Positions 35,734 to 61,994 of a stretch of DNA of 64,000 bases are shown here, piece after piece (positions within the stretch are counted from its first letter, which is position 1; every line of letters begins with the position of its first letter). Source of the DNA: a bacterium (GTDB lineage: Bacteria > UBP6 > UBA1177). The translations under genes were made by a program, and so were the position numbers. The DNA is taken from the NCBI GenBank assembly GCA_017405875.1, contig JAFQZM010000020.1, forward strand, positions 9,422 to 73,421, written 5' to 3'. The notes beneath the pieces are model-generated. The model saw only the letters and a program-made list of their open reading frames with translations. It was not told where the DNA came from and searched no databases.

Positions 35734-35758
35734 AAACAAAAAAACGGGGCATTATATA
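35734..35758 (-). promoter_or_regulatory. promoter of the polysaccharide locus: TATAAT-GCCCCG-TTTTTTTG (minus-strand sense)
   Basis: Reverse complement of 35734-35758 is TATAATGCCCCGTTTTTTTGTTTG, 42 nt upstream of the fnlA ATG. It belongs to a motif family seen at nine or more sites in this window. Confidence 0.5.
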
Positions 35759-35893
35759 CAATTTTTTTAAAATATCGAGATAAAATAGATGTTTCGGCAA
35801 ACATCGGCATGATGGGAACGTTTAAAAATGGACATTCTTACAAAAACAACTACCATTTGCGGAATTTAAGTTCTCTTTCTTTTGAGGTTTACT

Positions 35894-36424
35894 ATGAAAA
35901 AGGTCCTGATTCTTGTTTCCATTATTTTAGTTCTGCTCGTTTCGTGCGAAGACAATTCGTTAAAACCGGAAACTGCCGAAGCGCTGATCAAGGAGCGTCT
36001 TGCAAAAATGCCTGGCAGAAGCGTTTCGTTTTATCTGGGTGCGATGACCGATCCGAGCTACAAACCTGTTTACAAGGCGATTGCTACGGGAAAATATCTT
36101 ACTTTTCAGGATGATGTCTATGTTGAAGCTGCCGGCAAGAAAATGCCGATGTTCGAAGCGACTGAAGAGGGTAAAAAAATTTTCAAGTGCGAGAAGAACC
36201 GCTGCACAGTCGAAGTCTGCTCGACAGTTTTCGACCATTTCAACGGTATCGTGAACACCGGAAAGTATGCGAATGCCGAATATCAGGTCAAAACCGTCTG
36301 CGAGGGCGAACTTTACGAGATTTTCAAGCCGCTCGCCGACAAACAGTATATAAAACCGGAAACCACCGTTGAAAAAGCGGAGTTCGAGTTTTCAAAAGAA
36401 AATAAAAAATGGTTGTTGAAGTAG
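35894..36424 (+). CDS. hypothetical lipoprotein
   Basis: Signal peptide plus lipobox LLVSCEDN. RBS GAGG. Confidence 0.5.
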   Translation: MKKVLILVSIILVLLVSCEDNSLKPETAEALIKERLAKMPGRSVSFYLGAMTDPSYKPVYKAIATGKYLTFQDDVYVEAAGKKMPMFEATEEGKKIFKCEKNRCTVEVCSTVFDHFNGIVNTGKYANAEYQVKTVCEGELYEIFKPLADKQYIKPETTVEKAEFEFSKENKKWLLK

Positions 36425-36433
36425 GAGGAAAAA

Positions 36434-36928
36434 ATGACTGAATGTTACTGCGGAAGCGGAAAAAATTACGAAGAGTGCTGCGAACCGATAATCAAGGGCA
36501 AAAAAATTGCTGAAACGGCTGAAGAGCTGATGCGTGCAAGGTACTCGGCTTTTGCGGCTCACGAAATAGATTTCATCATGGATACCGTTGTTCCCGATCA
36601 GACCGGCAACATGTCACGCGAAGCGGTCGAAAGATGGTCAAAAAAGACCGACTGGAAAAAGCTCGAAATCACAGGAACCGAAGCGGGCGGCAAGGACGAC
36701 GAGACCGGCAGCGTCGATTTCAAGGCGTTCTCAATGCTTGACGGCATTATGCAGTGCCACCACGAGCACGCAATGTTCAAAAAAATCGACGGAAAATGGT
36801 TTTTCGAAGACGGAACGCAGATCATGCCTGAACAGGTAAGACGCGAAACTCCGAAAGTAGGCCGCAACGATCCGTGCCCCTGCGGAAGCGGCAAAAAATA
36901 TAAAAAATGCTGCGGCAAGAATGCTTAA
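36434..36928 (+). CDS. ychJ: YchJ-family protein (UPF0225) with SEC-C metal-binding motifs
   Basis: N-terminal [13 protein letters not shown] and C-terminal [18 protein letters not shown] motifs flank an NTF2-like core. RBS AGGAGG. Confidence 0.8.
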
Positions 36929-36972
36929 CAGACCGATATTACTTAATAAAAAATCCCAGCCTGAATTTTGCT

Positions 36973-36995
36973 CAAATATTGCGTTTTTTTGTTTT
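36973..36995 (+). promoter_or_regulatory. promoter motif AAATATT-GCG-TTTTTTTG-TTTT upstream of the S8 protease gene
   Basis: Same -10 / GC-rich / T-tract architecture, 38 nt upstream of the ATG at 37011. Confidence 0.4.
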
Positions 36996-39596: not shown

Positions 39597-40739
39597 CTAA
39601 GAAAAAACCAGAAGATCAGGTTTGATTATCAGAATAAGACCGAGCGTGAGCATGAGAAGTCCGCTCACGAGTTTGAGCTTTTTCGCGTGTTTTTCTTCGA
39701 ATCTGTGCTTACCCATCGTGACAACGAACATAAGCACGATTATTGCAAGCGGAACAACGTAATAAACATTGTAAAGCGCCATGAAGAGATATTTTTTGAG
39801 GGTCGAGACATTCTGGATCGAAAGGACTCTCGTGTAGATTGCGGGAAGCCCGATCGTACAGCCGAGCTCAATCAGATTTACGAAAAACGCAAGTGCAATA
39901 GTTCCGAGAATCGACAAAAACATATTTTTGTTGTTGATGACACGCCTCATTTTCTCAAAAAGTTTCGGTTTGACTTTATCGGGAATCATCAGGCTCACAC
40001 CTTTTTTGAAGAAGAAAAACTCCTTCATGTTGATAAGTCCCATAATGATTGCAACAACACCGAGCGCGATCGTGACATAAGTCGTCATTCCCATAAACGT
40101 GAAAATATTGAGCCACGCCGTCATGAAAAGGAAATAAACAACGCCTGAAGAAATAACGAAAACCGAGCCTATCATTATAACTTTTTTCCTGTCTTTCGCA
40201 GCGACAAGAAGGGTGAGAAGGAACATCAGAACCCACATTGCACACGGGTTTACGCCGTCCAGAAGACCGATTATGAAGGTAAAACTCGGAAGTTTGACAA
40301 GCTGCGCGTCGATTTTCCCGAGAACCGGAACGTCAATCACGTTTTCCTTGCACTCCTGACACTGCTCACCGCACGATTCTCCGTCAGCCTTGTTCATTTC
40401 TATCATTTCACGGATAAGCGCGTCGTGGTGACCCGACTGGAAACCGACGATGAATTTTCCGTTGAAAATGAATGTCGGAACTCCGCCGCCCTGAATACCG
40501 AGCTTTTGCGTCATTTCTCTGAAAAGTTTCATATTTTCAGGAACTTGCAGAACTTCCAGCTTTTTAAAAGTTATATCGGGATATTCATGCTCAATAGCTG
40601 CGATGAACGGCTGCGCCTCGTGGCAGTGCGAACACTTATACGAATAAAAAAAGTAAAAAATATTGTCTTTCTGCACTTCTTCTGCAGAAACGGCAAATGA
40701 AACAAGCGCAAGAAGGAGCAGCAGGAAAAATTTTTTCAT
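39597..40739 (-). CDS. thioredoxin-like domain (CSHC) fused to a DsbD/CcdA-like transmembrane disulfide-transfer domain
   Basis: Signal peptide, then a Trx fold with CSHC. The C-terminal polytopic domain carries GVNPCAMWVL, like CcdA/DsbD-beta. The start was set at MKKFF. Confidence 0.65.
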   Translation of the reverse strand: MKKFFLLLLLALVSFAVSAEEVQKDNIFYFFYSYKCSHCHEAQPFIAAIEHEYPDITFKKLEVLQVPENMKLFREMTQKLGIQGGGVPTFIFNGKFIVGFQSGHHDALIREMIEMNKADGESCGEQCQECKENVIDVPVLGKIDAQLVKLPSFTFIIGLLDGVNPCAMWVLMFLLTLLVAAKDRKKVIMIGSVFVISSGVVYFLFMTAWLNIFTFMGMTTYVTIALGVVAIIMGLINMKEFFFFKKGVSLMIPDKVKPKLFEKMRRVINNKNMFLSILGTIALAFFVNLIELGCTIGLPAIYTRVLSIQNVSTLKKYLFMALYNVYYVVPLAIIVLMFVVTMGKHRFEEKHAKKLKLVSGLLMLTLGLILIIKPDLLVFS

Positions 40740-40756
40740 AAAAACCCCCAAAGTTA

Positions 40757-40781
40757 CGAACAAAAAAATCCGGCAATCATA
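40757..40781 (-). promoter_or_regulatory. promoter motif TATGAT-TGCCGGA-TTTTTTTG (minus sense) upstream of the DsbD-like gene
   Basis: Reverse complement reads GGCTATGATTGCCGGATTTTTTTGTTCG, 37 nt upstream of the ATG at 40739. Confidence 0.4.
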
Positions 40782-40817
40782 GCCAAAAACATTTTTTTAA
40801 CAAAAAAACAGCAGATT

Positions 40818-41195
40818 TTATTTCCGCGGCTCCTTTTTGACGGGACGCCCGATCATCGCACGGATTTTTTCTTCATAGACCCCTTTTTTAAATCCGACGA
40901 CATACTGGTCTCTGAAAACAAAAGTCGGGACACCGCCGCCCTTGATTCCCAGTTTTTCAACTTTTTTATTGAAAATCGCCATATTTTCAGGCGCTTTGGA
41001 AAGTTCAAGTTTCTTAAATTCAATATTCGGAAACTCTTTTTCCAATTCCTCTATAAAAGGCATTGCTTCGTGACAGTGCGGACACGACTCGGAATAGAAA
41101 AAATAAAATCTTTCGCTTTTCTGCGGAGTCTCTCCGGCAGAGAGCATCAACGAAATCATTGCCGAAACAAGTAAAATAAAAATTTTCTTCATAGC
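40818..41195 (-). CDS. secreted thioredoxin-like protein (CPHC), paralog of the N-terminal domain of the adjacent DsbD-like protein
   Basis: FYFFYSESCPHCHEAMPFIE...GGGVPTFVF aligns with FYFFYSYKCSHCHEAQPFIA...GGGVPTFIF of the neighbouring gene. Signal peptide present. The start was set at MKKIF (ATG 41195; AAGGTG upstream). Confidence 0.65.
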   Translation of the reverse strand, partial: AMKKIFILLVSAMISLMLSAGETPQKSERFYFFYSESCPHCHEAMPFIEELEKEFPNIEFKKLELSKAPENMAIFNKKVEKLGIKGGGVPTFVFRDQYVVGFKKGVYEEKIRAMIGRPVKKEPRK

Positions 41196-41214
41196 ACTTT
41201 TCACCTTCACAAAT

Positions 41215-41237
41215 TACAAAAAAACAGGGCATTATAC
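41215..41237 (-). promoter_or_regulatory. promoter TTGTTT, 16-nt spacer, TATAAT-GCCCTG-TTTTTTTG (minus sense) for the Trx-like gene
   Basis: Reverse complement reads CGCCGTATAATGCCCTGTTTTTTTGTAATTTG, 36 nt upstream of the ATG at 41195. Confidence 0.5.
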
Positions 41238-41268
41238 GGCGTTTTTTATTTAAAACAACCAAATTATA

Positions 41269-41310
41269 TTGACATTTCGGAGTTTTTGAATATGCTGTCG
41301 CGGTTTTTTG
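41269..41310 (+). promoter_or_regulatory. sigma70-type promoter TTGACA, 16-nt spacer, TATGCT, then GTCGCGG-TTTTTTG
   Basis: A canonical -35/-10 pair with the recurring GC-rich / T-tract downstream element, about 45 nt upstream of the ATG at 41338. Confidence 0.5.
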
Positions 41311-41337
41311 GTTCTAACCATTTTGGAGGGTATAAAA

Positions 41338-41580
41338 ATGGCTAACAAAGATTTCGACAAAATAACAAAACTTCCTGTTGACGAACGTTGCGAAGGTTGC
41401 GACAAAGTTGAGACGACAGAAGCAGGCAGCTTCTGCAAAAAATATGCAGATCCTTCATTTCACTGGGAAAATGACCAGGTTTGTTCTTTTGCTTCCCATG
41501 TAAAAAGAGAAGTTAAAGTTGTTACTAAGAAGCTCAATCCTCTTAAGGCTTCGAAAAGAGCTTCCGGTAAAAAGAAATAA
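41338..41580 (+). CDS. small Lys-rich four-Cys protein (hypothetical, ~80 aa)
   Basis: Starts MANKDFDK, has CEGC...C...C spacing and a K-rich tail. RBS GGAGGG. It is the first gene of a two-gene plus-strand unit. Confidence 0.4.
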   Translation: MANKDFDKITKLPVDERCEGCDKVETTEAGSFCKKYADPSFHWENDQVCSFASHVKREVKVVTKKLNPLKASKRASGKKK

Positions 41581-44420: not shown

Positions 44421-44456
44421 TCAAAAAAAGAAAGAGGGGACAACCGCCCCCTCTTT
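44421..44456 (-). terminator. intrinsic terminator hairpin (9-bp GC-rich stem AAAGAGGGG/CCCCTCTTT) followed by a T-tract on the minus strand
   Basis: A perfect inverted repeat at 44431-44439 and 44448-44456, with CTTTTTTTG downstream in minus sense. It lies between the GTPase-like gene and the carbamate kinase gene. Confidence 0.6.
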
Positions 44457-44477: not shown

Positions 44478-45834
44478 CTATTTGCAGCAGCCTTTGCATT
44501 TGAAAAGTTTTTCAACAGCTTCTTTAAGCAGTTCTGCACCGTTTCCTCTCGGAGCAAGTTCGTAGCCAACGCGTACGATCGGTTTGTTGACTTTTACAAC
44601 TCTGCCGAGGTCGATCGGGGTACCGCTGAGAACGATATCAGCGTCTATTGCGTTGATCGTCTTCTCAAGGTCTCTGGTCTGCTCTTCGCCGTATCCCATA
44701 GCCGGAAGGATGCCTTCGCCGATGTTCGGATATTTTTTGTAGGTGAAAGCGATTTTGCCGACAGCTGCCGGTCTCGGGTCAACCATCTCTTTAACGCCGA
44801 ATCTCTTAGCTGCTACGCTTGCAGCACCGATCTTCATGCCGCCGTGGGTAAGTGTCGGGCCGTCTTCAACAACGAGGACTCTCTTTCCTTTGATGTCGCC
44901 GTCAACGGTAAGTTCTGAGTCAGCTTCGATAATAACTGCGTTCGGAGCGAGTCTCTTGCAGTTAGCTTTAACTGTTTCGATATCTTCCGGTTTCGCGCTG
45001 TCCATCTTGTTGATGACGATAACGTCAGCCATAAGAACATTGACTTCGCCCGGATAGTAAAGGCATTCGTGACCCGGACGGAGAGGATCTACGACAACGA
45101 TCTTGAGGTCTGATTCATAGAACGGGAAATCGTTGTTTCCGCCGTCCCAGAGGATGACATCGGGTTCGCCGTCGATATCTTTTTCAGCCTGACGAAGGAT
45201 AGCTTCGTAGTCAACGCCTGCATAAATTACGTTGCCTGCAGCAATGTGCGGCTCGTACTCTTCCATTTCTTCGATGGTGCAGTTGTTAGCTTTGAGGTCT
45301 TCGATCTTAGCGAAGCGCTGAACAGCCTGTTTGTTGAGGTCAGGATCGTAAGGCATCGGGTGACGTACTGCAACGACCTTTTTGCCCATTTTCTTGAAAA
45401 TATCATAGATGAATCTTGTGGTCTGGCTTTTGCCGCAGCCGGTTCTTACAGCGCAGATCGAGATGATCGGTTTGCATGATTTGATTTTCGTCTTGTCATA
45501 GCCCATAAGAACGAAGTCAGCGCCGAGCGAGTTAACGAGAGCGCCCTTGCTCATAACTATCGGATAGTAAATGTCGCTGTAAGCAAATACGCAGATTTCA
45601 ACGCCGAGTTCTTTAACGAGTCTCGGAAGTTCGGTTTCGTCATAAATCGGAATACCGTTCGGGTAAAGGTCTTCACCTGCGAGTTCTTTCGGATACTTTC
45701 TTCCGTCGATGTCAGGAATCTGAGTCGCGGTGAAAGCAACTACTTCGTACTCCTTGTTGTGTCTGAAATAGGTGTTGAAGTTGTGGAAATCTCTACCGGC
45801 AGCACCCATGATGAGAACTTTTTTTCTGGTCATT
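44478..45834 (-). CDS. predicted P-loop GTPase, cyclic 2,3-diphosphoglycerate synthetase-like (COG2403 family)
   Basis: A mid-protein Walker A AVRTGCGKS and an N-terminal Rossmann-like KVLIMGAAGRDFH. Family assignment is from memory only. The start was set at MTRKK with GGAGGA upstream. Confidence 0.55.
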
Positions 45835-45861: not shown

Positions 45862-45901
45862 ACGGCCGGACAAGGTCAACGGCGGCCGGACACAGTCAAC
45901 G
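45862..45901. repeat. tandem 20-bp direct repeat CGGCCGGACA(A/C)(G/A)GTCAACGG, two copies, in a promoter region
   Basis: It lies 30-70 bp upstream of the GTPase-like gene start. Each unit contains a TTGAC (-35-like) on the minus strand. Confidence 0.6.
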
Positions 45902-45978
45902 GCGCAGGAAAATATCATACTAAAATCCTATGTCAAGCGTAAAAGAAAAAATTTAGAGGTGATTCTGCTTATAAGAAT

Positions 45979-46692: not shown

Positions 46693-48090
46693 TTATTCAT
46701 TGCTTGAACAAGAGTCTGAGAAAAGAGCCAGCTCTTTGTCGCATTTTTCCATATCTTCTTCAGGTTCATCGCATTCCTGTGAATATCCGCTGTAGAAAAT
46801 GTATATGTCATCGCCTTCAGGAGTGCAGCGGTAAATGTCGAAATCTCCGTTTGCGCAATACATGTAATAACTGCACTCTGCAGGAATTGCTTCTTCCTCT
46901 TCCTCTTCTTCTTCGGAAGTCGTATCACCGCAGTATTCGTAATATTCCTCGTAGCATGACTGCATATTTTCTTCGTTGCACTCGAATTTCCTGTCTCCTA
47001 CCTGATAGTAGAAGTTTCCGTCACCTTTTGTCGAAGCGCAGGCTTTGGATGTTTCGCCGGTTTTTTCGCATACACCCTCTTCTTCGCAGTAGAATCCGTC
47101 TTCGTATTCGCCGTCAAGTGCTTCGCAGTACTGTTCCATTTTGAAAAAACAGTCTTCGTGATTTTCCGATTCGCATTTGAATTCTTTATCACCGACTTTT
47201 ATCGAGTAGATGTTGGAATATGAGCCGTTGAAATCACCGTAAAGGCAGTAAACGAGCATCTCGCCTGTTTTCTGGCAGTAGATCGATTCGTTTTCTTTGT
47301 CATCGTAGTCGGCATCTTCTTTGTCACCATAGATAGTATCCCACTCTTTTATGGTCTTGCAGGTAACTTCGCCGGTTTTGCCGCCGCCGTTGTTGTTGTT
47401 GGAATTTTCTTCTGTTACTTCGTCAACAACAATGAAAGTGTAGTCGGAGAAGTGACCGGTCGTCATCATGATAGGATCGCCTGCAGCAGCGTTCATAATA
47501 GGATCGCCCGCAGCATTCGTCATGATAGGATCACCTGCCGAAGCAAGCATGATGGGATCACCGGCAGCAGCATTCATGATAGGATCGCCCGCAGCGGTCG
47601 TCACATTTCCGTTGCTGATCATAATGGGATCGCCTGCAGCAGTCGTCATGATGGGATCGCCTGCTTCGTCATATCCGCCGAACAGTGCATAAGCTCCTTT
47701 TTCGCTGTAGCTCCATGTTCCGTCGCCTTTCATAACGGCAGCCGCAACAGTTTTGCCTTTTACAGCCTTTCCGGCATTGATCGTGATGACAACGGGTTTT
47801 TTGAATTTTGTACCTGAAGGACCGAATTCAACGATATTGGAAGCAAGAGCTTTTTTGTTTTTGAATCCGTCTGTTGTGTAAAGTGTTACCGAAATTTCGG
47901 TGTCTTTGTCGAGTGCTCCGGCAGGAATTTTTATCTTTGCTTCGCCGCCGGCAACTTCGATTTCTCCGCCTTCCGAAGCGGTAATTGTCTGTGATTTTTC
48001 TTCAACAACTTTCTTGCTTTCGCCGGATCCGCCGCAACTTACTGCAAAAAAGAGCGCTGCACAAATCGTCAAAACCAAAATTTTTTTCAT
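46693..48090 (-). CDS. lipoprotein with seven GDPIM-containing 9-aa tandem repeats and a C-terminal acidic Cys-rich region
   Basis: Signal peptide plus lipobox FFAVSCGGSG. The central repeats are (A)AGDPIMxxA. The C-terminal part has an E8 run and repeated Y..VGD+.F.C.EN...C modules. Confidence 0.6.
   Translation of the reverse strand: MKKILVLTICAALFFAVSCGGSGESKKVVEEKSQTITASEGGEIEVAGGEAKIKIPAGALDKDTEISVTLYTTDGFKNKKALASNIVEFGPSGTKFKKPVVITINAGKAVKGKTVAAAVMKGDGTWSYSEKGAYALFGGYDEAGDPIMTTAAGDPIMISNGNVTTAAGDPIMNAAAGDPIMLASAGDPIMTNAAGDPIMNAAAGDPIMMTTGHFSDYTFIVVDEVTEENSNNNNGGGKTGEVTCKTIKEWDTIYGDKEDADYDDKENESIYCQKTGEMLVYCLYGDFNGSYSNIYSIKVGDKEFKCESENHEDCFFKMEQYCEALDGEYEDGFYCEEEGVCEKTGETSKACASTKGDGNFYYQVGDRKFECNEENMQSCYEEYYEYCGDTTSEEEEEEEEAIPAECSYYMYCANGDFDIYRCTPEGDDIYIFYSGYSQECDEPEEDMEKCDKELALFSDSCSSNE
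47467..47673. repeat. in-frame 27-bp tandem coding repeats (7 units, one with an 18-nt insertion)
   Basis: The units CATGATAGGATCGCCTGCAGCAGCGTT and variants encode the GDPIM repeats of the 46693..48090 gene. Confidence 0.8.
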
Positions 48091-49113: not shown

Positions 49114-49140
49114 TTTTTCGTATCACCCAGTACGGCACCA

Positions 49141-49160: not shown

Positions 49161-49247
49161 CAGGATTTTGAAAAATTGGAATAATTTTTAAATTCAAGCT
49201 GTTGAAAAGGGGCGATACGGTCAAAAACCGACGTTTGCCGTGATTAT

Positions 49248-49293: not shown

Positions 49294-49329
49294 ATTGTTT
49301 TTTTGATAACCTAGTTAAAGGAGGATTTC

Positions 49330-52439: not shown

Positions 52440-53797
52440 AGGTCGGAAAATATAGCTTCAACTTTGGGAACATTCTGCTTTTTCATAATTATGATGACGC
52501 TGTCGCCCGCCCTCATTTCAAAATCGCCGTTGGGAATCGAAATCTCTTTGTTTCGGGTAATCGCGGCAATAATCGAATTTTCCGGCATATTGAGCTCCTT
52601 TATCTTTTTGCCGCATGCGTTGCATTCAGGCGAAACGAGGATCTCGACCGCTTCAGCTTCTCCGTCGAAAAGAGTGTGGAGCGTGATTATCCTGCCGCGT
52701 CTGATGTATTTCAGAATCGCGTCGACTGTGCTTCGCTTCGGGCTGACCGTTGCGTCAACGCCCAGTTTCTGAGCAATAGAAATGTAGCTTTCCTTGCTGA
52801 CAGAAGCGATCGCCCTTTCGACTCCGATGCTTTTTGCGTAAAGTGCCGAAAGAACGTTGAGTTCCTGATTTTCAGTGACCATGATGATGAGATCGACTTC
52901 GTTCAGGCGTTCTTCATCGAAAATCGACTCGTTTCTGACATCGCCGTTAATTACAAGGACGTTCGGGTATCTTCTCGAAATATCTTTCGCTTCTTCGTAG
53001 TCTTCGGAAAGAAGTTTCAAATTTATCGGCATCATCGAAAGGGTTCGAAGAAGGCTTTTTGCGATTTTCGTCGTTCCGACAATGAGAGCCGTTTCGATTT
53101 TTTTCATCTTTTTGCCTGTTCTGGCAAAGACATAATCCATAGTTTTTTCATCTGCGACGATATAGATTTCGTCACCTTCGCGGACAACCGTGTTTCCCGA
53201 AGGAATAAGCACCGATTCACCGCGTTTTATCAGGGCTATGAGGAAAGATTTATTTATCTCTTTTCTGATTTTTATAAGGTTTTTGTTCCTGAATGACGAA
53301 TTTTTGTCGACGATTTCGTTTCTGACGGTGATATTGCTCCCTTCAAATGCGAGAACATCGCTCAAAGCGCCCTGTTTTACGATTTCGGTAATGTGGTTCG
53401 CCGCCGCCATTTCGGGCGAAATGATGTAGTCGGCACCAAGAAACGGACTTCCCTGGAATTCGGCGTGAGAGTAGTCGAGGTTACTGACTCTGGCGATTTT
53501 CCTGAGTTTCAGCATCGATCCGTCGGGAGAAGATGAAGCCGCAATCGAGCACGCGATGAGGTTTGTTTCATCCTTGTTCGTCGCCGCGATGAAGTAGTCG
53601 CCGTCTGCAAGGTCGATTTCCTGCATCGTCTGGCTGCGGTTTATCTCTTTGTTGATGACCATGCAGTCAAGGTTGCTTTCGAGAAACTTGGCGCGGATCG
53701 GATCACGCTCGATGATAATAACGTCTTTTCCCTCTTTGATGAGGTGTCTGGCAATATCGTAGCCGACGGCACCCGCGCCTGCAATTACGAATTTCAT
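52436..53797 (-). CDS. trkA: Trk system NAD-binding regulatory subunit (two TrkA-N/TrkA-C repeats)
   Basis: MKFVIAGAGAVGYDIARHL and a second Rossmann ALIVGTTKIAKSL with two RCK C-terminal domains. The start was set at MKF with GGAG upstream. It overlaps the trkH start by 4 nt. Confidence 0.85.
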   Translation of the reverse strand: MKFVIAGAGAVGYDIARHLIKEGKDVIIIERDPIRAKFLESNLDCMVINKEINRSQTMQEIDLADGDYFIAATNKDETNLIACSIAASSSPDGSMLKLRKIARVSNLDYSHAEFQGSPFLGADYIISPEMAAANHITEIVKQGALSDVLAFEGSNITVRNEIVDKNSSFRNKNLIKIRKEINKSFLIALIKRGESVLIPSGNTVVREGDEIYIVADEKTMDYVFARTGKKMKKIETALIVGTTKIAKSLLRTLSMMPINLKLLSEDYEEAKDISRRYPNVLVINGDVRNESIFDEERLNEVDLIIMVTENQELNVLSALYAKSIGVERAIASVSKESYISIAQKLGVDATVSPKRSTVDAILKYIRRGRIITLHTLFDGEAEAVEILVSPECNACGKKIKELNMPENSIIAAITRNKEISIPNGDFEMRAGDSVIIIMKKQNVPKVEAIFSDL

Positions 53798-53954
53798 TAA
53801 AACTCCAAGAACATTGAAAAAACCTGCAATATTACGATTGAAAGGCAAAATGTCAATTTTTGGGCAATGGCGCATATTTTACTTTCAATATGATTAATTA
53901 GTGATAATATATGGAGCTTGTTTGAGTTTTTTAGCATTTTGCGGGAGAGTTGAC

Positions 53955-56033
53955 ATGGTTGATGACTACAAAATCGGGATACGAAAAAATCATCGGAATG
54001 TTATTATTCTCTGTATCGCTTCCGTTCTGATAAACGTCGTCTTTGCGCGTCTGGCACAGTTCTTATCGCAGAATTTCGGCATGCAGCTCTGGTTCGACAC
54101 TATCGGAACCGTTCTCGCAGCAGCAATGGGCGGCTACCTTCCGGGCATTTTTGTCGGTCTTGTCACAAATTTCATGAAAGGTTTCATGGATTTTGCCTCT
54201 ATATACTACTCCGCGATGAATGTCCTTATCGCCGCGACTTCAGCCCTTCTGGCAAACCACGGATTTTTAACGAAAAAGTGGAAAATCCCGTTTTTCATAC
54301 TTGTCATGGCTTTCATCGGCGGTGTTCTCGGCGGTATCCTTCCAAGCATCGTCAACTCCATTCCGACTGCCGGTTTTCTGAACGATCTGCTGTGGGATCT
54401 TGTGGATAAGACCATTTCAGTACTCTTAGTCGTCGCAATCGTCAGGGCGATCCCGCCTGCGACCAGAGAAACGCTTCGTTTCAACGGCTGGAAACAGGCG
54501 CCGCTTACGAAAAGCGATCTGGAGGAGATCAAAAAGACGATCCAGTGCCGTTCCGTTTTTTTAAGATCAAAAATCATTTTCATTCTGGCAGCAGCGCTTG
54601 TCACCCTGGCCGTAACAGCGTCAACGATCAGCTTTGTACTCTACAGGAACGCGCTTATCACTGAATATTCCGAATTCGCCCGCGAGGTGACCATTGCAAT
54701 CTCAGAGGTTTTGGATCACGAAAAGATCGACGAATACATCTCAAGCAAAGGTGCTGACCCGGAATATCTCGAAGTCATGCACAAACTTGAAGATATAAAG
54801 ACTACCGCTCCGACTGTAAAATTCATCTACATCTACAAAATAGAAGAGGACGGCGGACACGTGGTTTTCGACCTTCATTCCAACAATGAGGAAGATTCCG
54901 TTCCCGGCAAACTTGTAAAATTCGACTCCGCTTTCGAGCCTTATCTTCCTACACTTCTGGAAGGAGGCGAGATAGAACCGGTCATTTCCGACAGCGACTT
55001 TGGGCGGCTCCTTTCGGTTTACACTCCCGTCAAAAATTCTGCCGGAAAAACTGTAAGCTACATCGGGGCGGACATCCCAATGTCAATGATAGTCGGAAAA
55101 GAGCTGAACTTCCTGACTCAGATGGTATTCCTCTTCCTGGGTTTCGTGATCCTTATCATTGCGATCGTTGTCTGGTTTGTCGATTTCAACGTCGTTTTCC
55201 CGATCAACTCAATGACGATGCGGACAAGCGAGTTCGCCTACAGCGGCAGCAACGCGCTCGGCGAAAACGTCGAGAAGATCAAACGTCTTGACATCCACAC
55301 CGGAGACGAGGTCGAAAACCTGTATAAGGCTTTCACCAAGATGACCGAAGACACAATGGGTTATGTCGATAAGATCGTCAGTTCGGCTGAGAAGATCGCA
55401 CAGATAAACAGCACTTTCGGAAAGGTCGTTTCGCCTCAGGTCAGGGATTTCCTGCTTTCCGATAACCCCGACCTCGGCGGTCAGGATATCGATGTCACCG
55501 TAATGTTCTGCGATATACGCGGTTTTACCACCATATCAGAAAGACTCGAACCAAAAGAAATAGTTTCGATGCTGAACCGCTATTTCACCCGTCTCGAGAA
55601 ACCGATCGTCGAAAACGGCGGAATCATAAACAAGTATATCGGCGACGCTATAATGGCTGTTTTCGGAGTTCCGTTGCAGTCGGAAACCCATGCCTACGAT
55701 GCATGGAAAGCCGCACAGGGAATGAGAGCGCAGCTTGCAGCTCTCAACGAGGAGCTGAAAAACGAAGGACGGCAGGAAATCCGCTTCGGAATAGGTTTAT
55801 GTTCCGGTAAAGTTCTTGCCGGAAATATCGGAACTGCGAACCGGCTTGAATACACCGTTATCGGCGACACCGTAAACACTGCAAGCCGCATCGAGAGCCT
55901 TTGCAAAACTTACAAAACAGATCTGCTTATTTCCGAGCAGACGAAAGAACTTCTTCCTGACGACGTATCGCTTACATTCATCGCAGAATCAGAGATCCGC
56001 GGAAAAGAGAAAAAAATCAAACTTTATTCTTAA
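53955..56033 (+). CDS. membrane-bound class III adenylate/guanylate cyclase with an N-terminal polytopic sensor domain
   Basis: The C-terminal cyclase domain carries VTVMFCDIRGFTTISE...KYIGDAIMAVFG...GIGLCSGKVLAGNIG...YTVIGDTVNTASRIE. N-terminal TM helices and an extracytoplasmic segment precede it. The start was set at MVDDYK with GGGAGAG upstream; the track start is a GTG 18 codons earlier. Confidence 0.75.
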   Translation: MVDDYKIGIRKNHRNVIILCIASVLINVVFARLAQFLSQNFGMQLWFDTIGTVLAAAMGGYLPGIFVGLVTNFMKGFMDFASIYYSAMNVLIAATSALLANHGFLTKKWKIPFFILVMAFIGGVLGGILPSIVNSIPTAGFLNDLLWDLVDKTISVLLVVAIVRAIPPATRETLRFNGWKQAPLTKSDLEEIKKTIQCRSVFLRSKIIFILAAALVTLAVTASTISFVLYRNALITEYSEFAREVTIAISEVLDHEKIDEYISSKGADPEYLEVMHKLEDIKTTAPTVKFIYIYKIEEDGGHVVFDLHSNNEEDSVPGKLVKFDSAFEPYLPTLLEGGEIEPVISDSDFGRLLSVYTPVKNSAGKTVSYIGADIPMSMIVGKELNFLTQMVFLFLGFVILIIAIVVWFVDFNVVFPINSMTMRTSEFAYSGSNALGENVEKIKRLDIHTGDEVENLYKAFTKMTEDTMGYVDKIVSSAEKIAQINSTFGKVVSPQVRDFLLSDNPDLGGQDIDVTVMFCDIRGFTTISERLEPKEIVSMLNRYFTRLEKPIVENGGIINKYIGDAIMAVFGVPLQSETHAYDAWKAAQGMRAQLAALNEELKNEGRQEIRFGIGLCSGKVLAGNIGTANRLEYTVIGDTVNTASRIESLCKTYKTDLLISEQTKELLPDDVSLTFIAESEIRGKEKKIKLYS

Positions 56034-56061: not shown

Positions 56062-56901
56062 TTAAAAGATTTTTTCAGGATTTTCGCAGAAACAGTTTGC
56101 AAGACATTCAGTGATGAAGTAGCGTGATTCACCGCAACTGAATACCGAAGCTTCATCTTCAGGATAACAGCCGCATTCGTTCGGAATTTCATCTGAATCG
56201 GCGTCTTCGTCGGGAAGTTCCGTATCGTTATCGGTCTCATCAGAGTCATCATCTTCACCGACCGACGGGTCAGCATCGTCACCCTCGCCTTCTGTCAAAT
56301 CTCTGGTGATTCCGGCTTCGTCGCAAAGCCCTGGTTCTGAAACTGAACAGATTTTGCCGCCTGAATTGATGGCGTAGCAGTTTACGAAACACGGGTTGAA
56401 GACCAATATTTTGCCGTCGCAGCATACCGGGAAATAGTCCGGAGTACTGCCGCATCCGCATTCAACATTCGTAAATCCTTCAGGGAACGGATCACTTTCA
56501 GGGAATATGTAGACAGGCGCGTCTTCATCAGGAAAATCGTCAGGATTTGCCGGATCATTCATATCCGGTTCAGAATCGGTATCAATATCTGTATCGGTAT
56601 CGGTTGGATCAATACTATCCGCATAATCTTCATCCGGATAAGGAGCGTTCTGTTCATCATTTTCTTCATACTTATCCTGCCCGCCCTCATCGTAATAGTC
56701 ACTGTCGGCATTGTCTTCGTTCCAATCGTCGTAGTTTCCGGCACTTGCCGTGTCCGCATTATCGCCTTCGTAAATCTCGTCCGGAAGCCCTTCTGTATTG
56801 TCTTCACCGTCGGAGGATTTATCGCCCAGATTTACGAACTGACTGCAAGAAACAACGAACAAAACAACTGAAACGACTAAGAAAAATCTACTTTTCATCA
56901 A
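56062..56901 (-). CDS. acidic lipoprotein with two Kazal-like protease-inhibitor modules
   Basis: Signal peptide plus lipobox LFVVSCSQ and long D/E-rich spacers. Two Cys modules, ECGCGSTPDYFPVCCDGKILVFNPCFVNCYAINSGGKIC and ECGCYPEDEASVFSCGESRYFITECLANCFC, match the Kazal PVCG.DGKTY.N.C..C spacing. Confidence 0.55.
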   Translation of the reverse strand: MMKSRFFLVVSVVLFVVSCSQFVNLGDKSSDGEDNTEGLPDEIYEGDNADTASAGNYDDWNEDNADSDYYDEGGQDKYEENDEQNAPYPDEDYADSIDPTDTDTDIDTDSEPDMNDPANPDDFPDEDAPVYIFPESDPFPEGFTNVECGCGSTPDYFPVCCDGKILVFNPCFVNCYAINSGGKICSVSEPGLCDEAGITRDLTEGEGDDADPSVGEDDDSDETDNDTELPDEDADSDEIPNECGCYPEDEASVFSCGESRYFITECLANCFCENPEKIF

Positions 56902-58111
56902 TTATCCTCTTGATTTCCCTGCTGCGGAAACTTCTCGGATATTCTCTGAGGTAATCATGGCAGAGCGGAAGATCTCTGCTTTCCGATTTTTTCTGCGACA
57001 GGCAGCCTTTTATCATGATTTCTTCTTTATATACGCGGCTTTCGCGCATAACTCTGTCATATTTTTTAACCAGATTTGCAATTTCCGCATAATCTTTTTT
57101 AGCTTCGTTTATCGAAATAAGTTCGAACAACGCCTTGTCGGGTTCATGGCCTTTCTCGATCTCCATCGTGAAAAGCTGCTGCGCCGCTCCGGTTTTTCCC
57201 GCTGAGAGGGCTTCTCTTCCCTGAAACAGGAAAGATTTGCCCGGAGTCAGCGCAAAGTCTTGTTTTTTAGGATTGTTTTTCGTCTTTTTTCCAGGGGTCG
57301 TTATGGCAATTTGTTGTTCTTTCTGATGGTCTTTATATTCAAAAGTCTTATTCATGTCTTTGGAAAGCTGCGTTGCCGCGCCGTTTGCCTTCTCAACAAT
57401 TTCAACGAGACCGCTGAAAACTTCAGCCGTAAGTTTTCCGTCTGAATAGTCGAGCGTGAAAGATGTTCCGAGAACTCTGACTAAAAATTTTCCGTCGACA
57501 TCGATCCTGAAATCGTTGCCTGTGACGACGTCGAACTTCGCCTTTCCTTTTTTCATCGAAACGTCTGTATCGGTGATATTTTCAAGATAAGTGTTCGAAA
57601 TTACTGAAATCGTTGCCTTTGCGAGCTGAACTTTCGCACCGCTTTCCCTTTCGCCGGATGCGTAATCTTCTTTCGTTTCAATGACAGCTTCTGTCGCACC
57701 TGCTGTTGCGATTTCGACAGTTTTTTCTGTGTTTTCAGCCGGTTTCCCGCTATTAAAAAGTGCAACTGCAATTACTACTGCAACTGCAAGCGAAAGTGCG
57801 AGCGCCGGTTTGAACCATGAAGCAAAAAGCGCGGAAAAACTGAAGCCTTTTTCTTTTTCTGGCTCGGTTTCTTCTTCAAAAGGCAGCATTGCAAACGATT
57901 TTGCCGCGATTTCGGTAACTTTCGCTTCATCAACAGCTGGAACGAATTCCTTTGACTCGGCGAAAATCTCTTTCGCGCCGCAGCAGCAGCTTATCATTGA
58001 AGAGCAGTCAGTGCATTCGGCAACGTGCTTTTCCGTTTCGGGAAGCAGCACGTATCTGCCGTCTGCGAGAGCTATCGCTTCTTCGATCGTTATGTGTTTC
58101 TCGGATACCAT
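56888..58111 (-). CDS. anti-sigma factor (zf-HC2 N-terminus, TM helix, FecR-like periplasmic domain, C-terminal TPR)
   Basis: HVAECTDC zinc-finger motif, a single TM helix (ALALSLAVAVVIAVALF) and a FecR-like block (FRIDVDGKFLVRVLGTSFTLDY). It is downstream of the ECF sigma gene and overlaps the Kazal-like gene by 14 nt. Confidence 0.7.
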   Translation of the reverse strand: MVSEKHITIEEAIALADGRYVLLPETEKHVAECTDCSSMISCCCGAKEIFAESKEFVPAVDEAKVTEIAAKSFAMLPFEEETEPEKEKGFSFSALFASWFKPALALSLAVAVVIAVALFNSGKPAENTEKTVEIATAGATEAVIETKEDYASGERESGAKVQLAKATISVISNTYLENITDTDVSMKKGKAKFDVVTGNDFRIDVDGKFLVRVLGTSFTLDYSDGKLTAEVFSGLVEIVEKANGAATQLSKDMNKTFEYKDHQKEQQIAITTPGKKTKNNPKKQDFALTPGKSFLFQGREALSAGKTGAAQQLFTMEIEKGHEPDKALFELISINEAKKDYAEIANLVKKYDRVMRESRVYKEEIMIKGCLSQKKSESRDLPLCHDYLREYPRSFRSREIKRIIDEK

Positions 58112-58119
58112 AAAACCTC

Positions 58120-58695
58120 TTACATACTAAGACTCAATATTTCATAAAGCTCCTTTTTCGCCTGATTTATCCTCGACCAGACTGTCTGGAGCGGCTGTTT
58201 CAATATCTCGGAGATCTCTTTCAGCGGAACTCCTTCGACCTCGTAAAGAGTTAAAGCAAAGCGTTTTTCAGGCGATAATTTTTTCATCGCACTGTTCACC
58301 ATCTGTGCTTTTTCCTGCTTTATCATCGAAGCCTCGCTGCCGGACGATTTGTCTCCGATCTGGAGAAAAAACTCAGGTTCTTCCGCAGTTTCGATCCGGT
58401 TCATATTCTTCTGGATGTATTTGTAGGTCGTATTTACCGCTATACGATAAAGGAAAGTCGAAAAAAGCGAATCGCGCTTGTAAATTTTTATCGCTTTCGC
58501 CATTTCGGTAAAAACTTCCTGCACAACATCCTCCGCTTCGGCACTTTTGCCGATGATTCTGTAAACCGTGGCGGCAACTTTTCCGTAGTAGCGCGTTATA
58601 AGCGCCGTCCACGCCTTCTGGTTTTTTTCACGCAGTGCAAGGTCGACAAGAATGTTGTCATCAAGATTTGCCAATATCCTGTCTTCCTTCACCAC
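58120..58695 (-). CDS. ECF-family RNA polymerase sigma factor
   Basis: A sigma-70 region 2 (DVVQEVFTEMAKAI...FSTFLYRIAVNTTY) and region 4 (LKEISEILKQPLQTVWSRINQAKKEL). GTG start with GAGGA upstream. Confidence 0.8.
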   Translation of the reverse strand: MVKEDRILANLDDNILVDLALREKNQKAWTALITRYYGKVAATVYRIIGKSAEAEDVVQEVFTEMAKAIKIYKRDSLFSTFLYRIAVNTTYKYIQKNMNRIETAEEPEFFLQIGDKSSGSEASMIKQEKAQMVNSAMKKLSPEKRFALTLYEVEGVPLKEISEILKQPLQTVWSRINQAKKELYEILSLSM

Positions 58696-58796
58696 AGCAA
58701 AATCCTCGTATTTAGTTCCATTTCTGCCCGTTTTTTATTGAAAAAAAATGAAAAAAATTCAAAAAAAACGAGATTTCCCAAAAAATATCAATAAAA

Positions 58797-60413
58797 TCAG
58801 TCATTTTTACCTTTCAAAAAAGTTGAGAAAAATAACGCCAGCGAGACAAAAAAGACAATAAGATCGGCTGTAAAGAGATTTCCGGTCATAAAACCGCCCG
58901 CAATCAAAGTTCCCGTCATCAGAAATGCCGCCGTGATTCTCGTCACCATTTTCGATACGAATTTGCGCTCCGAATCGTTCAAAATCACCATAATTCTGTG
59001 TTGGATCGTGCCGTTTTCGAGCTTTTCGGTGATGTTCGTCACCGTATCCGGCAGCGTGTGGACAGTGTCAACGATTTTTTCGATCGCGCTTGTCGCTTCA
59101 GCCGCGATATTTTCGGGCGAAAACTTCTGCATGATTATCTCTTTCGAGAGTTTTCCCGCGACCGTCATAAGCTCGAATTCGGGATCGAGTTTTCTGCAAA
59201 GCCCCTCAATCATTGAGAAACTTCTTATAAGCTGCGTAAGCTCTCTCGGCACTTTGAGCTTGTATCTGAAAACGACGCTGGAAATTTTCCCGACTACTTC
59301 AGCCGTATTTATCTCAGCCAGATTGTCAGGCAAGTTCTCGAAAATATTGCGTAAATCTCTGACAAAAAGCTCTTTGTCGTCAATTTCTCCGTTTTCGCTG
59401 AGTTCAAGGCATATACGCGCCGTTTTTTCCCAGTCTTTTGCGACGAAAGCGATGAAAAGATCAGCCAGTTTGCTGCGCATAAACTTATCAATGTATCCGC
59501 ACATTCCGGTATCAATTATCGCTATCTCGTTGTTTTCCTTAAAGAAAATATTACCTTCGTGCAAGTCGGCATGAAAAAATCCGTCGTTGAGGATCATCTT
59601 CATCAGAACTTCGGCTCCTCTGCCGGCAATAACCTTTCTGTCGAAATTTTCCTTATTTTCAGGTTTGATGACATCATCAAGTTTCAGCGCGAAGATCCGT
59701 TCCATGACAAGGATTTTATTCGTGCAGTAAATTCCGTGCATTTTCGGGAACTTAAGCCAGTTCCACTTCGGAGAGCTGAAATTTTTGACGAATTTTTCGT
59801 TATTCGATTTTTCGAGCATTAAGTCGAGTTCCATGTTCATAGTCTGAAAAAACTCTTCCGCAATCGCCTCGAAATCAATGTTCTGGGAATATGAAGTTTT
59901 GTTGATGTAGTGCGCGATCGTGAAAATAAGTGCCATGTCATCGCGGATCGTCTCGGTTATTCCCGGCTTTCTCACTTTGACGACAACTTTTTCGCCGTTT
60001 TCCTTCAAAGTTGCGCCATATACCTGCGAAATCGATGCCGCCGCGATGGGATTTTCATCGAATTCCGAAAAAATATCAGTAATTTCAGCACAGAGTTCGC
60101 CCTCGATTATCGGTTTTATCTGCTCGAATCCTATCGGTTTGACGTTGTCGGTCAGTTTTTTGAACTCTTCAGCCATAGAAGCCGGAATAATATCCTTTCT
60201 GAGCGACATCATCTGACCGAGTTTTATGAAAGTAGTGCCGAGTTCTTCAAAGGCTTCGCGGATATTTTTTTCAAGGCTGGGATTCCCCGTTTCCTCAGAA
60301 GGTCTCGATATCCCGAACTTTTTGAAAAATGCCTGCGGAAGATATTTCCCGAGACCGTGTTTGTTGAGAACGGCAATGATTTCCTTGATTCTTTTGAGCC
60401 TTTTGAGATCCAC
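58797..60413 (-). CDS. ABC1/UbiB-family atypical protein kinase
   Basis: AAASISQVYGATL...VVVKVRKPGI, HADLHEGNIF and IIDTGMCG kinase-like motifs, with C-terminal TM helices. GTG start with GGAGG upstream. Confidence 0.85.
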   Translation of the reverse strand: MDLKRLKRIKEIIAVLNKHGLGKYLPQAFFKKFGISRPSEETGNPSLEKNIREAFEELGTTFIKLGQMMSLRKDIIPASMAEEFKKLTDNVKPIGFEQIKPIIEGELCAEITDIFSEFDENPIAAASISQVYGATLKENGEKVVVKVRKPGITETIRDDMALIFTIAHYINKTSYSQNIDFEAIAEEFFQTMNMELDLMLEKSNNEKFVKNFSSPKWNWLKFPKMHGIYCTNKILVMERIFALKLDDVIKPENKENFDRKVIAGRGAEVLMKMILNDGFFHADLHEGNIFFKENNEIAIIDTGMCGYIDKFMRSKLADLFIAFVAKDWEKTARICLELSENGEIDDKELFVRDLRNIFENLPDNLAEINTAEVVGKISSVVFRYKLKVPRELTQLIRSFSMIEGLCRKLDPEFELMTVAGKLSKEIIMQKFSPENIAAEATSAIEKIVDTVHTLPDTVTNITEKLENGTIQHRIMVILNDSERKFVSKMVTRITAAFLMTGTLIAGGFMTGNLFTADLIVFFVSLALFFSTFLKGKND

Positions 60414-60424
60414 TTAAGCCTCCG

Positions 60425-61144
60425 TTACAGGTAAGTCCTGACGAATATTTTGTCGCGTTTCGTGATGCGCCTCATTTCGACCGCCATCCGCTCAAGCTGC
60501 TCCGTTGAATAGCTTTCAGCCGCCTTGGCTTCGTCAGTATAAGCGTTGTCCTTGATAAATTTCTGGAGATAGTAAACAGCGTTTTCAGGAATAAAATCAG
60601 CCATTTTGCAAAGGCGCTCGTAACTTTCTACAAGTTTAGGATACATCGTGGTACGGTATTCGACTTTCGCATTGCTCTGGTTTTCCAGAAGTTTTTTTGT
60701 TGCAAGCAGCTTTTCTTCGACTTCTTTTTTCGGCAGTTTGCAGCCGAGCTCGCAGTAGAGATCAGGAGTCGTCTTGATGTCGATTGCGATATACGAAAGA
60801 TCGGGAAGGATTTTTTCAATAAATTCAGGTTTCAAGCCGTTTGAATCGATTTTTACGGCAAGACCGAAACGCTCTTTTATTTCGCGTACCAAGTCGATGA
60901 GTTCGTCATAAAGCGAAGTCTCTCCGCCCGAAAACGAAACGCCTTCGATGAATTTAAGTCGCTTCTGAATGTCGGAAATTATGTAATCCCTCGAAAGCCA
61001 TTTTTCCTGCGGCGGAACTTCAAAAAGGGAAGAATTGTGGCAGTAGGGACAGCGCAGATTGCAGCCGGAAAAGAAAAAAAGAGTCGCTATTTTTTCAGGA
61101 AAATCAACAAGAGTAGTCTGAACGTGACCGGTGATGGGAAGCAT
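60425..61144 (-). CDS. radical SAM activating enzyme (glycyl-radical enzyme activase / NrdG-PflA-like)
   Basis: CNLRCPYCHN CxxxCxxC cluster near the N-terminus, about 240 aa long. Which glycyl-radical or other partner it serves is uncertain. The start was set at MLPITG with GGAGAA upstream. Confidence 0.6.
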   Translation of the reverse strand: MLPITGHVQTTLVDFPEKIATLFFFSGCNLRCPYCHNSSLFEVPPQEKWLSRDYIISDIQKRLKFIEGVSFSGGETSLYDELIDLVREIKERFGLAVKIDSNGLKPEFIEKILPDLSYIAIDIKTTPDLYCELGCKLPKKEVEEKLLATKKLLENQSNAKVEYRTTMYPKLVESYERLCKMADFIPENAVYYLQKFIKDNAYTDEAKAAESYSTEQLERMAVEMRRITKRDKIFVRTYL

Positions 61145-61173
61145 TCTATTCTCCAACTAAATACGCAAAAACA

Positions 61174-61947
61174 TTAAGATTTTCTATTTACCAAATGGTA
61201 GTCTCTCTGAGCTGTCGGATAGATTATGATATCCGAAACATTTACGTGCGGCGGTCTCGTGACGACGTAAAGAACCGCGTCTGCGATATCTTCTGCGTGA
61301 AGCGGCTCGTAACCTTCATAAACTTTGTCGGCGCGCGCCTTGTCGCCTTCAAATCTGACCATGCTGAACTCGGTTTCAACGGCGCCTGGATCGATCGTGG
61401 TGACACGAAGCGAAGTTTTTAAAAGGTCCTTTCTAAGCCCGTTAGTTATCGCATTGACCGCGTGTTTTGTCGCGCAGTAAACCGTGCCGCCCGGGTAAGT
61501 TCCGCGTCCGGCAGTAGAGCCGATGTTCACGATGTGGCCTTTGTCGCGCTCGATCATAACGGGAAGAACCGCTTTCGTGACGTAAAGCAGACCTTTGACA
61601 TTTGTGTCGATCATCTGCTCCCAGTCGGATATTTTGTTTTCATTGAGAGGCGTCATGTCTTTGGCAAGACCTGCGTTATTGACAAGAATTTCAATGTTTT
61701 TAAACTCTTTAGGCAGTTTCGCGAAAAATTTTTCAACAGCTTTCTGATCCCTGACATCAAGAACTCCGGCGAAACATTTGACTTCGTATTTGTCACTTAA
61801 ATACTGCGCAAATTCTTTGACTTTTTCTTCTCTCCTTGCCGAAAGTACAAGATTGCAGCCCGCTTCCGCCAGCGCTTCGGCAGTAGCCGCACCTATTCCC
61901 GAACTTGCACCAGTCACACACGCGATTTTTCCAGAAATATCGAACAT
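61174..61947 (-). CDS. short-chain dehydrogenase/reductase (SDR), NADP-dependent 3-hydroxy-acid dehydrogenase-like
   Basis: TGASSGIGAATA cofactor motif, NNAG and a YxxxK (YCATK) catalytic block. The start was set at MFDISGK with GAGGTGG upstream. Confidence 0.85.
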   Translation of the reverse strand: MFDISGKIACVTGASSGIGAATAEALAEAGCNLVLSARREEKVKEFAQYLSDKYEVKCFAGVLDVRDQKAVEKFFAKLPKEFKNIEILVNNAGLAKDMTPLNENKISDWEQMIDTNVKGLLYVTKAVLPVMIERDKGHIVNIGSTAGRGTYPGGTVYCATKHAVNAITNGLRKDLLKTSLRVTTIDPGAVETEFSMVRFEGDKARADKVYEGYEPLHAEDIADAVLYVVTRPPHVNVSDIIIYPTAQRDYHLVNRKS

Positions 61948-61969
61948 TTTCCACCTCACATTAAAACAA

Positions 61970-61994
61970 CAAAACCAAAAAACGCACAATTATA
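61970..61994 (-). promoter_or_regulatory. promoter motif TATAAT-TGTGCG-TTTTTTGG-TTTTG (minus sense) upstream of the SDR / radical-SAM / UbiB unit
   Basis: Reverse complement reads TATAATTGTGCGTTTTTTGGTTTTG and begins 47 nt upstream of the ATG at 61947. Confidence 0.45.

Follow-up and report, generated by a model that had tools for sequence, protein, structure and literature searches.

T-runs fixed to the -10 hexamer at predicted transcription starts in an uncultured rumen lineage of UBP6

What is the role of a long T-run that recurs, behind a -10 hexamer and a short GC-rich spacer, upstream of unrelated genes of one bacterial lineage? The question is raised by a stretch of 64,000 nucleotides (nt) of GenBank assembly GCA_017405875.1 (contig JAFQZM010000020.1, positions 9,422 to 73,421 of the forward strand); the whole stretch is referred to as the window and is numbered from its first letter. 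Its source is assigned to UBA1177 of UBP6, an uncultured phylum known through rumen surveys. A preliminary description of the window had reported a uniform architecture (-10 hexamer, GC-rich 6-7-mer, T6-7G tract) at nine or more transcription-unit starts. Core promoter architecture is thought to be broadly conserved among bacteria; few lineage-level departures are well documented, such as the -33/-7 promoter of Bacteroidetes and the loss of -7T in alpha-proteobacteria. The evidence given below supports the view that the sites are putative housekeeping promoters of this lineage, of the sigma-70/sigma-A type, built on a clade-specific plan.

Promoter layout and anchoring of the T-run

The motif was counted in the window and in 100 dinucleotide-preserving shuffles of it. 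TAWAAT-N5-7-T6 is found 9 times, versus 0.51 +/- 0.70 expected (maximum 3); TANNNT-N5-7-T6G is found 14 times, versus 2.2 expected. T6G tracts by themselves are common (73 in the window, both strands), so that only the composite motif is informative. The composite was defined as a -10 match of at least 5/6 (including A at position 2 and T at position 6), a spacer of 5-9 nt with at least 50% G+C, and a run of at least five T; a first relaxed definition, T[AT]NNN[TA], was dropped as too noisy. The DNA scanned, 285 kb, includes the window and loci from 12 related genomes, with crude gene calls made by the authors. Intergenic DNA lying upstream of a gene, read in the sense of that gene, holds 40 matches (1.24/kb), coding DNA 16 (0.031/kb) and other intergenic DNA 1; the sense-upstream density is about 40-fold above that of coding or other intergenic DNA. 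With a perfect TATAAT, 21 matches are sense-upstream and 0 elsewhere. Counted by region, the composite occurs in 49 of 116 upstream regions in sense and in 5 of 116 in antisense, counts that are inflated by the many orthologous, non-independent promoters included in the set; coding segments carry it in 4/410 and 6/410 cases in the two orientations. Chance or base composition as the source of the motif is ruled out by the shuffles and by the densities per region class. In-clade and outgroup DNA cannot be told apart by the total number of motifs per locus; the position relative to genes is needed. The consensus pattern has one match in viral contigs, which is unrelated.

The run is anchored to the hexamer. 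For each run of at least six T located at most 120 nt upstream of a start codon, the end of a -10 was sought with no preset spacing. A good -10 ends 6 nt before the run in 29 of 213 upstream runs (a sharp peak) and 8 nt before it in 7 of 213; among runs of the same length inside coding DNA, the 6-nt spacing is found in 8 of 932. The distance from run to start codon is variable (11-64 nt). The T-run, being fixed to the -10 and not to the start codon, is therefore part of the promoter and not of the ribosome-binding site. Downstream of -10-like hexamers in upstream regions, C and G prevail at positions 2-6, and T rises to 60-67% over positions 8-11. The run is strand-specific: 49 T-runs are found versus 4 A-runs.

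The sense-upstream set gives the consensus TATAAT-nCCGCG-T6-7-GTT. The spacer is usually 6 nt (nCCGCG), less often 7-9 nt with a GA end; C occupies the second position after the hexamer in 17/24. G, itself after C, precedes the run in 35 of 40 sites, and the base at this place is nearly always a purine; the run, 5-8 T on the non-template strand, is followed by G in 32 of 40. The -10 is TATAAT-like throughout (TATAAT, TAAAAT, TATGAT, TAATAT), as in members of the sigma-70 class. At trkA, the DUF6811 gene, the small open reading frame (ORF) at 2070-2111, a transfer RNA (tRNA-Leu) of a related genome and several metagenome loci, the -35 is perfect or near-perfect (TTGACA or TTGACT, at 16-17 nt); the remaining sites have a weak -35 with 3-4 of 6 bases matching. 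The presence of TTGACA at 16-17 nt at several sites is the reason for assignment to the sigma-70 type. In a consensus scan of the region, the trkA, DUF6811, fnlA and DsbD-like sites are among the top -35/-10 matches. The earlier suggestion of a sigma-A promoter with a conserved initial transcribed region fits this -35/-10 geometry, as well as the sense orientation, the 6-nt locking, the purine and the conservation among orthologues.

The distance from the hexamer to the purine ahead of the run, 6-9 nt, places this purine in the zone past the -10 in which bacterial polymerases pick start sites. C-G-T at the junction of spacer and run corresponds to a pyrimidine-purine-pyrimidine (Y-R-Y) start element, as defined in PMC12641261. 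From the position of the purine and this junction, transcription is predicted to start either at that purine or at the T next to it, and the transcripts would begin with (G/A)U5-8G.

The genes preceded by the layout are unrelated according to Pfam: FnlA-type dehydratase, S8 protease, thioredoxin-fold proteins, DUF6811, hexapeptide acetyltransferase, GILT/DsbA, SDR (short-chain dehydrogenase/reductase), TrkA and DarT. Others are adenylate kinase, a tRNA and a cytidylate-kinase-like gene (named from its N-terminal sequence, not by Pfam). Such functionally unrelated genes do not constitute a regulon. Genes of pyrimidine metabolism, as served by this layout at upp, codBA and pyrBI, are absent from the T-run genes identified by Pfam. 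The tRNA is a tRNA-Leu(CAA) of a related genome (L006, 7945-8084): TTGACT-N16-TATTAT-accgcccga-TTTT adjoins the mature 5' end, so that the leader would be only about 5 nt long. A T4 run before an untranslated tRNA argues against a run that serves translation. Rfam models applied to the leaders at gathering thresholds matched one tRNA only in about 270 kb. More tRNA promoters were sought through the neighbours of adenylate kinase (Adk); new in-clade regions were obtained, with no tRNA.

All nine sites of the preliminary description were found at their coordinates and on their strands when the window sequence was re-read (Table 1), and the two -35 hexamers that it gave, TTGACA at 16 nt (DUF6811 gene) and TTGCTT at 17 nt (GILT/DsbA gene), hold. 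The S8 protease site is kept as a promoter; its earlier parse, AAATATT-GCG, is replaced by TCAAAT-attgcg-T7G, which fits better. The G that was said to close the tract does so at all of them except trkA, where C follows. The distance to the start codon, given as 33-47 nt, has to be corrected: the T-run starts 25-47 nt upstream of it. Five extra sites of the same design (DarT, AAA_14, small ORF, UDP-glucose dehydrogenase and 40801-40820) were added to these nine.

Table 1. Predicted T-run promoters of the window
Feature	Position	Strand	Layout	Remarks
fnlA (FnlA-type dehydratase) and long polysaccharide operon	35737-35778	-	TCGATA(-35)-N16-TATAAT-gccccg-T7-G	ATG 35709; Pfam Polysacc_synt_2
S8 protease	36972-36991	+	TCAAAT-attgcg-T7-G	ATG 37011; Pfam Peptidase_S8
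Trx-domain membrane protein (DsbD-like)	40761-40803	-	TTGTTA-N16-TATGAT-tgccgga-T7-G	GA + T-run sub-type
Second copy, right behind the Trx-like stop codon	40801-40820	-	TAAAAT-ctgctg-T7-G	Ambiguous, see text
Trx-like gene	41217-41258	-	TTGTTT-N16-TATAAT-gccctg-T7-G	Pfam Thioredoxin
DUF6811 (small Cys protein)	41269-41310	+	TTGACA-N16-TATGCT-gtcgcgg-T6-G	
Hexapeptide acetyltransferase (WbpD-like) operon	49141-49159	-	TAAAAT-gccgcg-T6-G	Kept in at least 10 related genomes
GILT/DsbA-like gene	49248-49290	+	TTGCTT-N17-TATAAT-cccgcg-T7-G	Kept in at least 10 related genomes; spacer sequence variable
trkA-trkH	53816-53856	-	TTGACA-N16-TAATAT-tgcagg-T6-C	T-run in 13 in-clade genomes, not in two outgroup orthologues
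SDR operon	61976-61994	-	TATAAT-tgtgcg-T6-GG	
DarT-Macro (DarTG-like) operon	5218-5235	+	TATAAT-tccccg-T5-G	Beyond the interval first described
AAA_14/DUF4143 ATPase gene	4871-4889	-	TATGCT-gagccgc-T5-G	Shine-Dalgarno sequence (SD) immediately after
Small ORF	2070-2111	-	TTGACA-N16-TAAAAT-ctttcgtc-T6	Perfect -35; AGGAGG immediately after
UDP-glucose dehydrogenase gene	3394-3410	-	TATTAT-agcgcgg-TTTT	Short-run (T4) variant

Distribution in relatives, outgroups and metagenomes

A genome scan with TrkA gave 12 species-level genomes with 91-98% identity, all of them rumen or foregut metagenome-assembled genomes; two carry the label 'UBP6_UBA1177/UBA1196'. TTGACA, TAATAT and the run of the trkA promoter are retained in all 12 species and in locus L016 (81% TrkA identity), and the 6-nt spacer drifts between species (tgcagg, tggcgg, ttccgg, tttcgg, tctcgg, ctgccg). 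The same is found at the trkA, GILT, hexapeptide and SDR promoters taken together: the run is retained (T5-T8) in 12-13 species and the spacer bases change.

The outgroup orthologues differ. The trkA promoter of L014 (64% TrkA identity) is TTGACA-N17-TAATAT-tggcggg-AATGTTC, without a run; that of L015 (56%) is recognisable and likewise devoid of a run. When positions 9025-9101 of L014 are set against 53794-53870 of the window, the promoters align and the run is missing between 'tggcgg(g)' and 'aatgttc'; the difference suggests that a segment was cleanly inserted or deleted at the putative start site. In L013 (67% TrkA identity), T-runs are found behind GC-rich segments, at odd distances from any hexamer. 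A run that is present in the clade and absent from the outgroups points to a derived trait of a narrow clade. As the outgroup promoters are GC-rich in the discriminator (the segment between -10 and start), the run would have been added onto pre-existing GC-rich discriminators.

A metagenome scan with the pattern TATAATNCCGCGTTTTTTG gave 43 loci, many of which are chance matches in unrelated DNA. Eight rumen loci with clade-like codon usage carry further such promoters at genes other than the one whose promoter was used as bait, e.g. TATAGT-ccaccg-T8-G, TAACTT-ccgcgg-T6-G, TATAAT-gccgcgg-T7 and TAAAAT-cgtccgg-T5-G. The two in-clade regions reached via adenylate kinase (L064 and L065) have the same layout. 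A variant is found next to trkA: the promoter of an adenylate/guanylate cyclase gene (53880-53955, +) has an extended -10 (TGaTAATAT) followed by atgcagg-TTTGTTGAG-TTTTTT and is conserved in relatives. Its T-tract is read as a T-run that is interrupted or comes late.

Slippage as proposed role and rival explanations

The resemblance to leaders subject to reiterative transcription, pointed out in the preliminary description, is confirmed in Escherichia coli K-12 MG1655, whose loci were read directly: upp (TATAAT-ccgtcga-T8-G) and codBA (TAGAAT-gcggcgga-T6-G) have the same succession of -10, GC-rich spacer, purine, T6-8 and G. The spacers of these two promoters are 7-8 nt long with a G-A end. 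This 'GA + T-run' sub-type is also present here, as tgccgGA-T7-G (40761-40781 of the window), accgcccGA-TTTT (tRNA-Leu) and cgcgcccGA-T7-G; the commonest form here, in contrast, has a 6-nt spacer and a G that immediately precedes the run. Use of the layout in E. coli is reportedly restricted to a few genes of pyrimidine salvage or biosynthesis (upp-uraA, codBA, also pyrBI), and the mechanism described by the Turnbough laboratory is said to be start-site switching dependent on uridine triphosphate (UTP) combined with non-productive stuttering. Here, dozens of unrelated genes are served. Reiterative promoters of this type have a T-run of at least 3 at the start site or adjoining it; here, runs of T5-8 begin 6-9 nt after the -10, next to the predicted start.

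Each ingredient of the layout is already known. Reiterative initiation occurs at homopolymeric start regions and relies on slippage of the RNA within a hybrid of 2-3 bp (PMC8812562). Slippage is detectable at 51% of E. coli promoters and strong at 229 of them; it is most pronounced at TTT start regions that have short spacers, T-to-C changes reduce promoter activity, and TTT accounts for only 187 of 4188 start regions (PMC12709180). In Streptococcus agalactiae, 15% of start sites slip, mainly on A (PMC4448216). These systems share with the present one a homopolymeric A/T start, a good -10 and a short spacer, and their slippage still yields full-length RNA; they differ in that T5-8 runs are found here at a quarter to half of recognisable promoters. 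A 5' T-tract of the initial transcribed region is frequent in Gracilicutes, e.g. Helicobacter pylori, according to a survey of statistical enrichment in 49 cultured species (PMC12641261). The Y-R-Y at the C-G-T junction and the 5' T-tract are common to both; here, the run is discrete, long and at a fixed offset, the discriminator is uniformly C/G-rich, and the run was gained in a narrow uncultured clade. Gracilicutes, E. coli included, normally have a diversity of discriminators, among which the C-rich ones are a mark of growth-rate-controlled, translation-related genes (PMC12641261). The stringent discriminator of the rrnB P1 type resembles the spacer described here (C/G-rich between -10 and start, C two positions past the hexamer); here, it is shared by unrelated, non-translation genes. 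The combination is unusual: long runs fixed at the start, C/G-rich discriminators and unrelated genes in one clade.

The proposal considered rather probable is that these are housekeeping promoters in which a T-tract spanning +2 to +8 induces slippage of the polymerase, a slippage that is probably productive, so that initiation is coupled to the supply of guanosine triphosphate (GTP) and UTP, and escape is eased. The polymerase would start at the purine just ahead of the run or at the first T; the weak rU:dA hybrid would let the nascent RNA slip, as at homopolymeric start regions of other RNA polymerases, and reiterative initiation would produce 5' oligo-U ends of variable length. The following steps are the most speculative. 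Slippage might be mainly productive, since the layout serves unrelated genes, and might help escape from promoters whose C/G-rich discriminators give short-lived open complexes; bulk transcription might then be sensitive to GTP/UTP supply, instead of being under a pyrimidine-specific switch. A wider version is a tentative possibility, for which the chances are modest: the clade may have rewired its default promoter to start on a long T-tract beside a destabilising C/G-rich discriminator, with stuttering as the normal escape route, UTP/GTP gating and, presumably, matching changes of sigma-A or core polymerase.

Apart from the inflated counts mentioned above, several points tell against these proposals. 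The layout is common and not universal: by strict criteria, the composite is present in 42% of the upstream regions of the trkA-centred set, and in independent in-clade regions the share is 11/47, or 15/47 when spacers of up to 12 nt are allowed (23-32%). The share judged by eye is higher because many -10 variants fail the filter. Overall, the T-run layout is found at roughly a quarter to half of transcription-unit starts, not at all of them. Promoters without a T-run include the one at 45.9 kb and that of the lipoprotein gene at 35894. The gene calls break down in a low-GC island at 10-24 kb. For the outgroups, the strict composite was found in 0 of 25 upstream regions in four loci, a small sample. 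The non-coding case is one tRNA with T4 only. The upp/codBA layout is reported to repress expression at high UTP in E. coli, which would make it an odd default for unrelated genes. Finally, a U-rich leader could exert its effect as RNA.

In this last alternative, considered unlikely, the run matters only as RNA (standby site for ribosomal protein S1, translation enhancer or stability element) and slippage is irrelevant. It would account for the T-richness that extends beyond the run (45-50% T at +13 to +22 after the hexamer), for the position of the run directly 5' of the SD in several genes, and for the pairing of the U-run with a start-codon A-run in 6 of 10 predicted leader folds of the window. 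This pairing is judged incidental, since start-codon A-runs are about as common at operon-internal genes (39%) as at T-run promoters (44%) and leader fold energies are the same as those of shuffles. A role in translation also sits badly with a run that keeps to the -10 and not to the SD or start codon, with the T4 run ahead of the untranslated tRNA, and with the purine before and the G after the run, which match E. coli reiterative promoters and have no obvious S1-binding role. An element acting as DNA is improbable: in this reading, the ease with which an A:T tract melts or bends would offset a hard-to-melt C/G-rich discriminator during bubble expansion, with no slippage. The fixed position of the run beside a uniformly C/G-rich spacer, and its gain in a clade whose outgroups already had GC-rich discriminators, agree with such a compensation. 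Melting alone does not explain the strand asymmetry of T-runs over A-runs and leaves the preference for G after the run without explanation. Slippage is to be expected of any polymerase that initiates on such a run (PMC8812562, PMC12709180).

Two further readings deny that the motif is a promoter plan, and both are very improbable. If the GC-rich segment and T-run served neighbouring genes as intrinsic terminators or insulators, with hexamers that are there by coincidence, the bases upstream of the hexamer should be complementary to the spacer, and at the main sites they are not. The sites precede genes and are oriented in their sense, often with a -35, and terminator-like matches in the region are not in excess (32 versus 26.3 +/- 5.6 in shuffles). 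Real look-alikes exist, and they favour the terminator reading locally. The T7G tract at 44431-44456 (-), although inside the interval first described, is a strong terminator with an 11-bp stem and not a promoter; a weak 5-bp stem lies directly behind a stop codon at 40811-40827 (-); an unrelated metagenome match, L058, is a true hairpin (AAAAAAGCGCGGC-TATAAT-GCCGCGTTTTTT). By eye and by terminator scan, this reading is ruled out at the main sites, except 44431-44456 and possibly 40811-40827; the copy at 40801-40820 (-) is accordingly ambiguous, either a tandem promoter or a weak terminator. If, on the other hand, the motif were the operator of one regulator, with a regulon such as the thiol-redox genes, the several thioredoxin-fold proteins encoded in the window would be explained and the remaining genes (dehydratase, S8 protease, TrkA, SDR, DarT, acetyltransferase, kinases, tRNA) would not. 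Dyad symmetry is absent, and the spacer sequence varies between orthologues, in which only composition and run are kept. The regulon reading is ruled out on gene functions.

The terminator at 44431-44456 (-) consists of AAAGAGGGGGC-ggtt-GTCCCCTCTTT followed by CTTTTTTTG; it is located between a gene encoding a 451-aa protein and a carbamate-kinase-like gene and is conserved in L001-L004 and L012. At about 936-954 of L058, AAAAAAGCGCGGC-TATAAT-GCCGCGTTTTTTG forms a perfect hairpin with TATAAT as the loop, i.e. a bidirectional-terminator look-alike of the promoter motif, which calls for caution in motif-only scans.

On the reading as T-run promoters, the lineage provides a departure of the start region from conserved core promoter architecture, recent enough for the trkA promoter to be seen both with and without the run. 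What is a nucleotide-sensor layout of few genes in E. coli looks like the default design here. The clade would be a natural system for reiterative initiation as a general mode, its cost and the polymerase features that permit it. The layout also provides a promoter model for annotating and engineering genes of this rumen lineage and a sequence signature, which picked the eight further contigs with clade-like codon usage out of rumen metagenomes.

Other features of the window

Two tandem 20-nt direct repeats, CGGCCGGACA(A/C)(G/A)GTCAACGG, are located at 45863-45902, between a TTGACA-type promoter without a T-run and the SD of the gene encoding the 451-aa protein (44478-45833). They are conserved in related genomes and are probably the operator of a regulator. 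An extracytoplasmic function (ECF) sigma factor (58120-58692) and a FecR-type anti-sigma (56888-58111) are encoded on the minus strand (56888-58800). The 100 nt upstream of the ECF gene contain several long T-runs and a 'CATTTTTTTTCAATAAAAA' segment conserved across species; as they contain no obvious TATAAT, the promoter is possibly ECF-dependent.

The low-GC island (about 10000-24000; 34-37% versus 44-48% in the flanks) lies within a long minus-strand polysaccharide cluster. It has atypical codon usage and was probably acquired horizontally, as a serotype-specific block. Another locally low-GC stretch carries a pair of genes (5312-6963, +) that match DarT (Pfam, E=2e-20) and the Macro domain (E=1.2e-16), a DarTG-like toxin-antitoxin or defence module with a T-run promoter in front. 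Thiol-redox genes are unusually clustered at 39597-41580 and 48113-50904. They encode two small thioredoxin-like proteins, a Trx-domain membrane protein, a Cys-rich DUF6811 protein and a 524-aa protein with two GILT matches plus DsbA-like hits. A 465-aa protein encoded at 46693-48090 (-) matches the ZU5 domain (E=8e-9), a domain best known in eukaryotic proteins.

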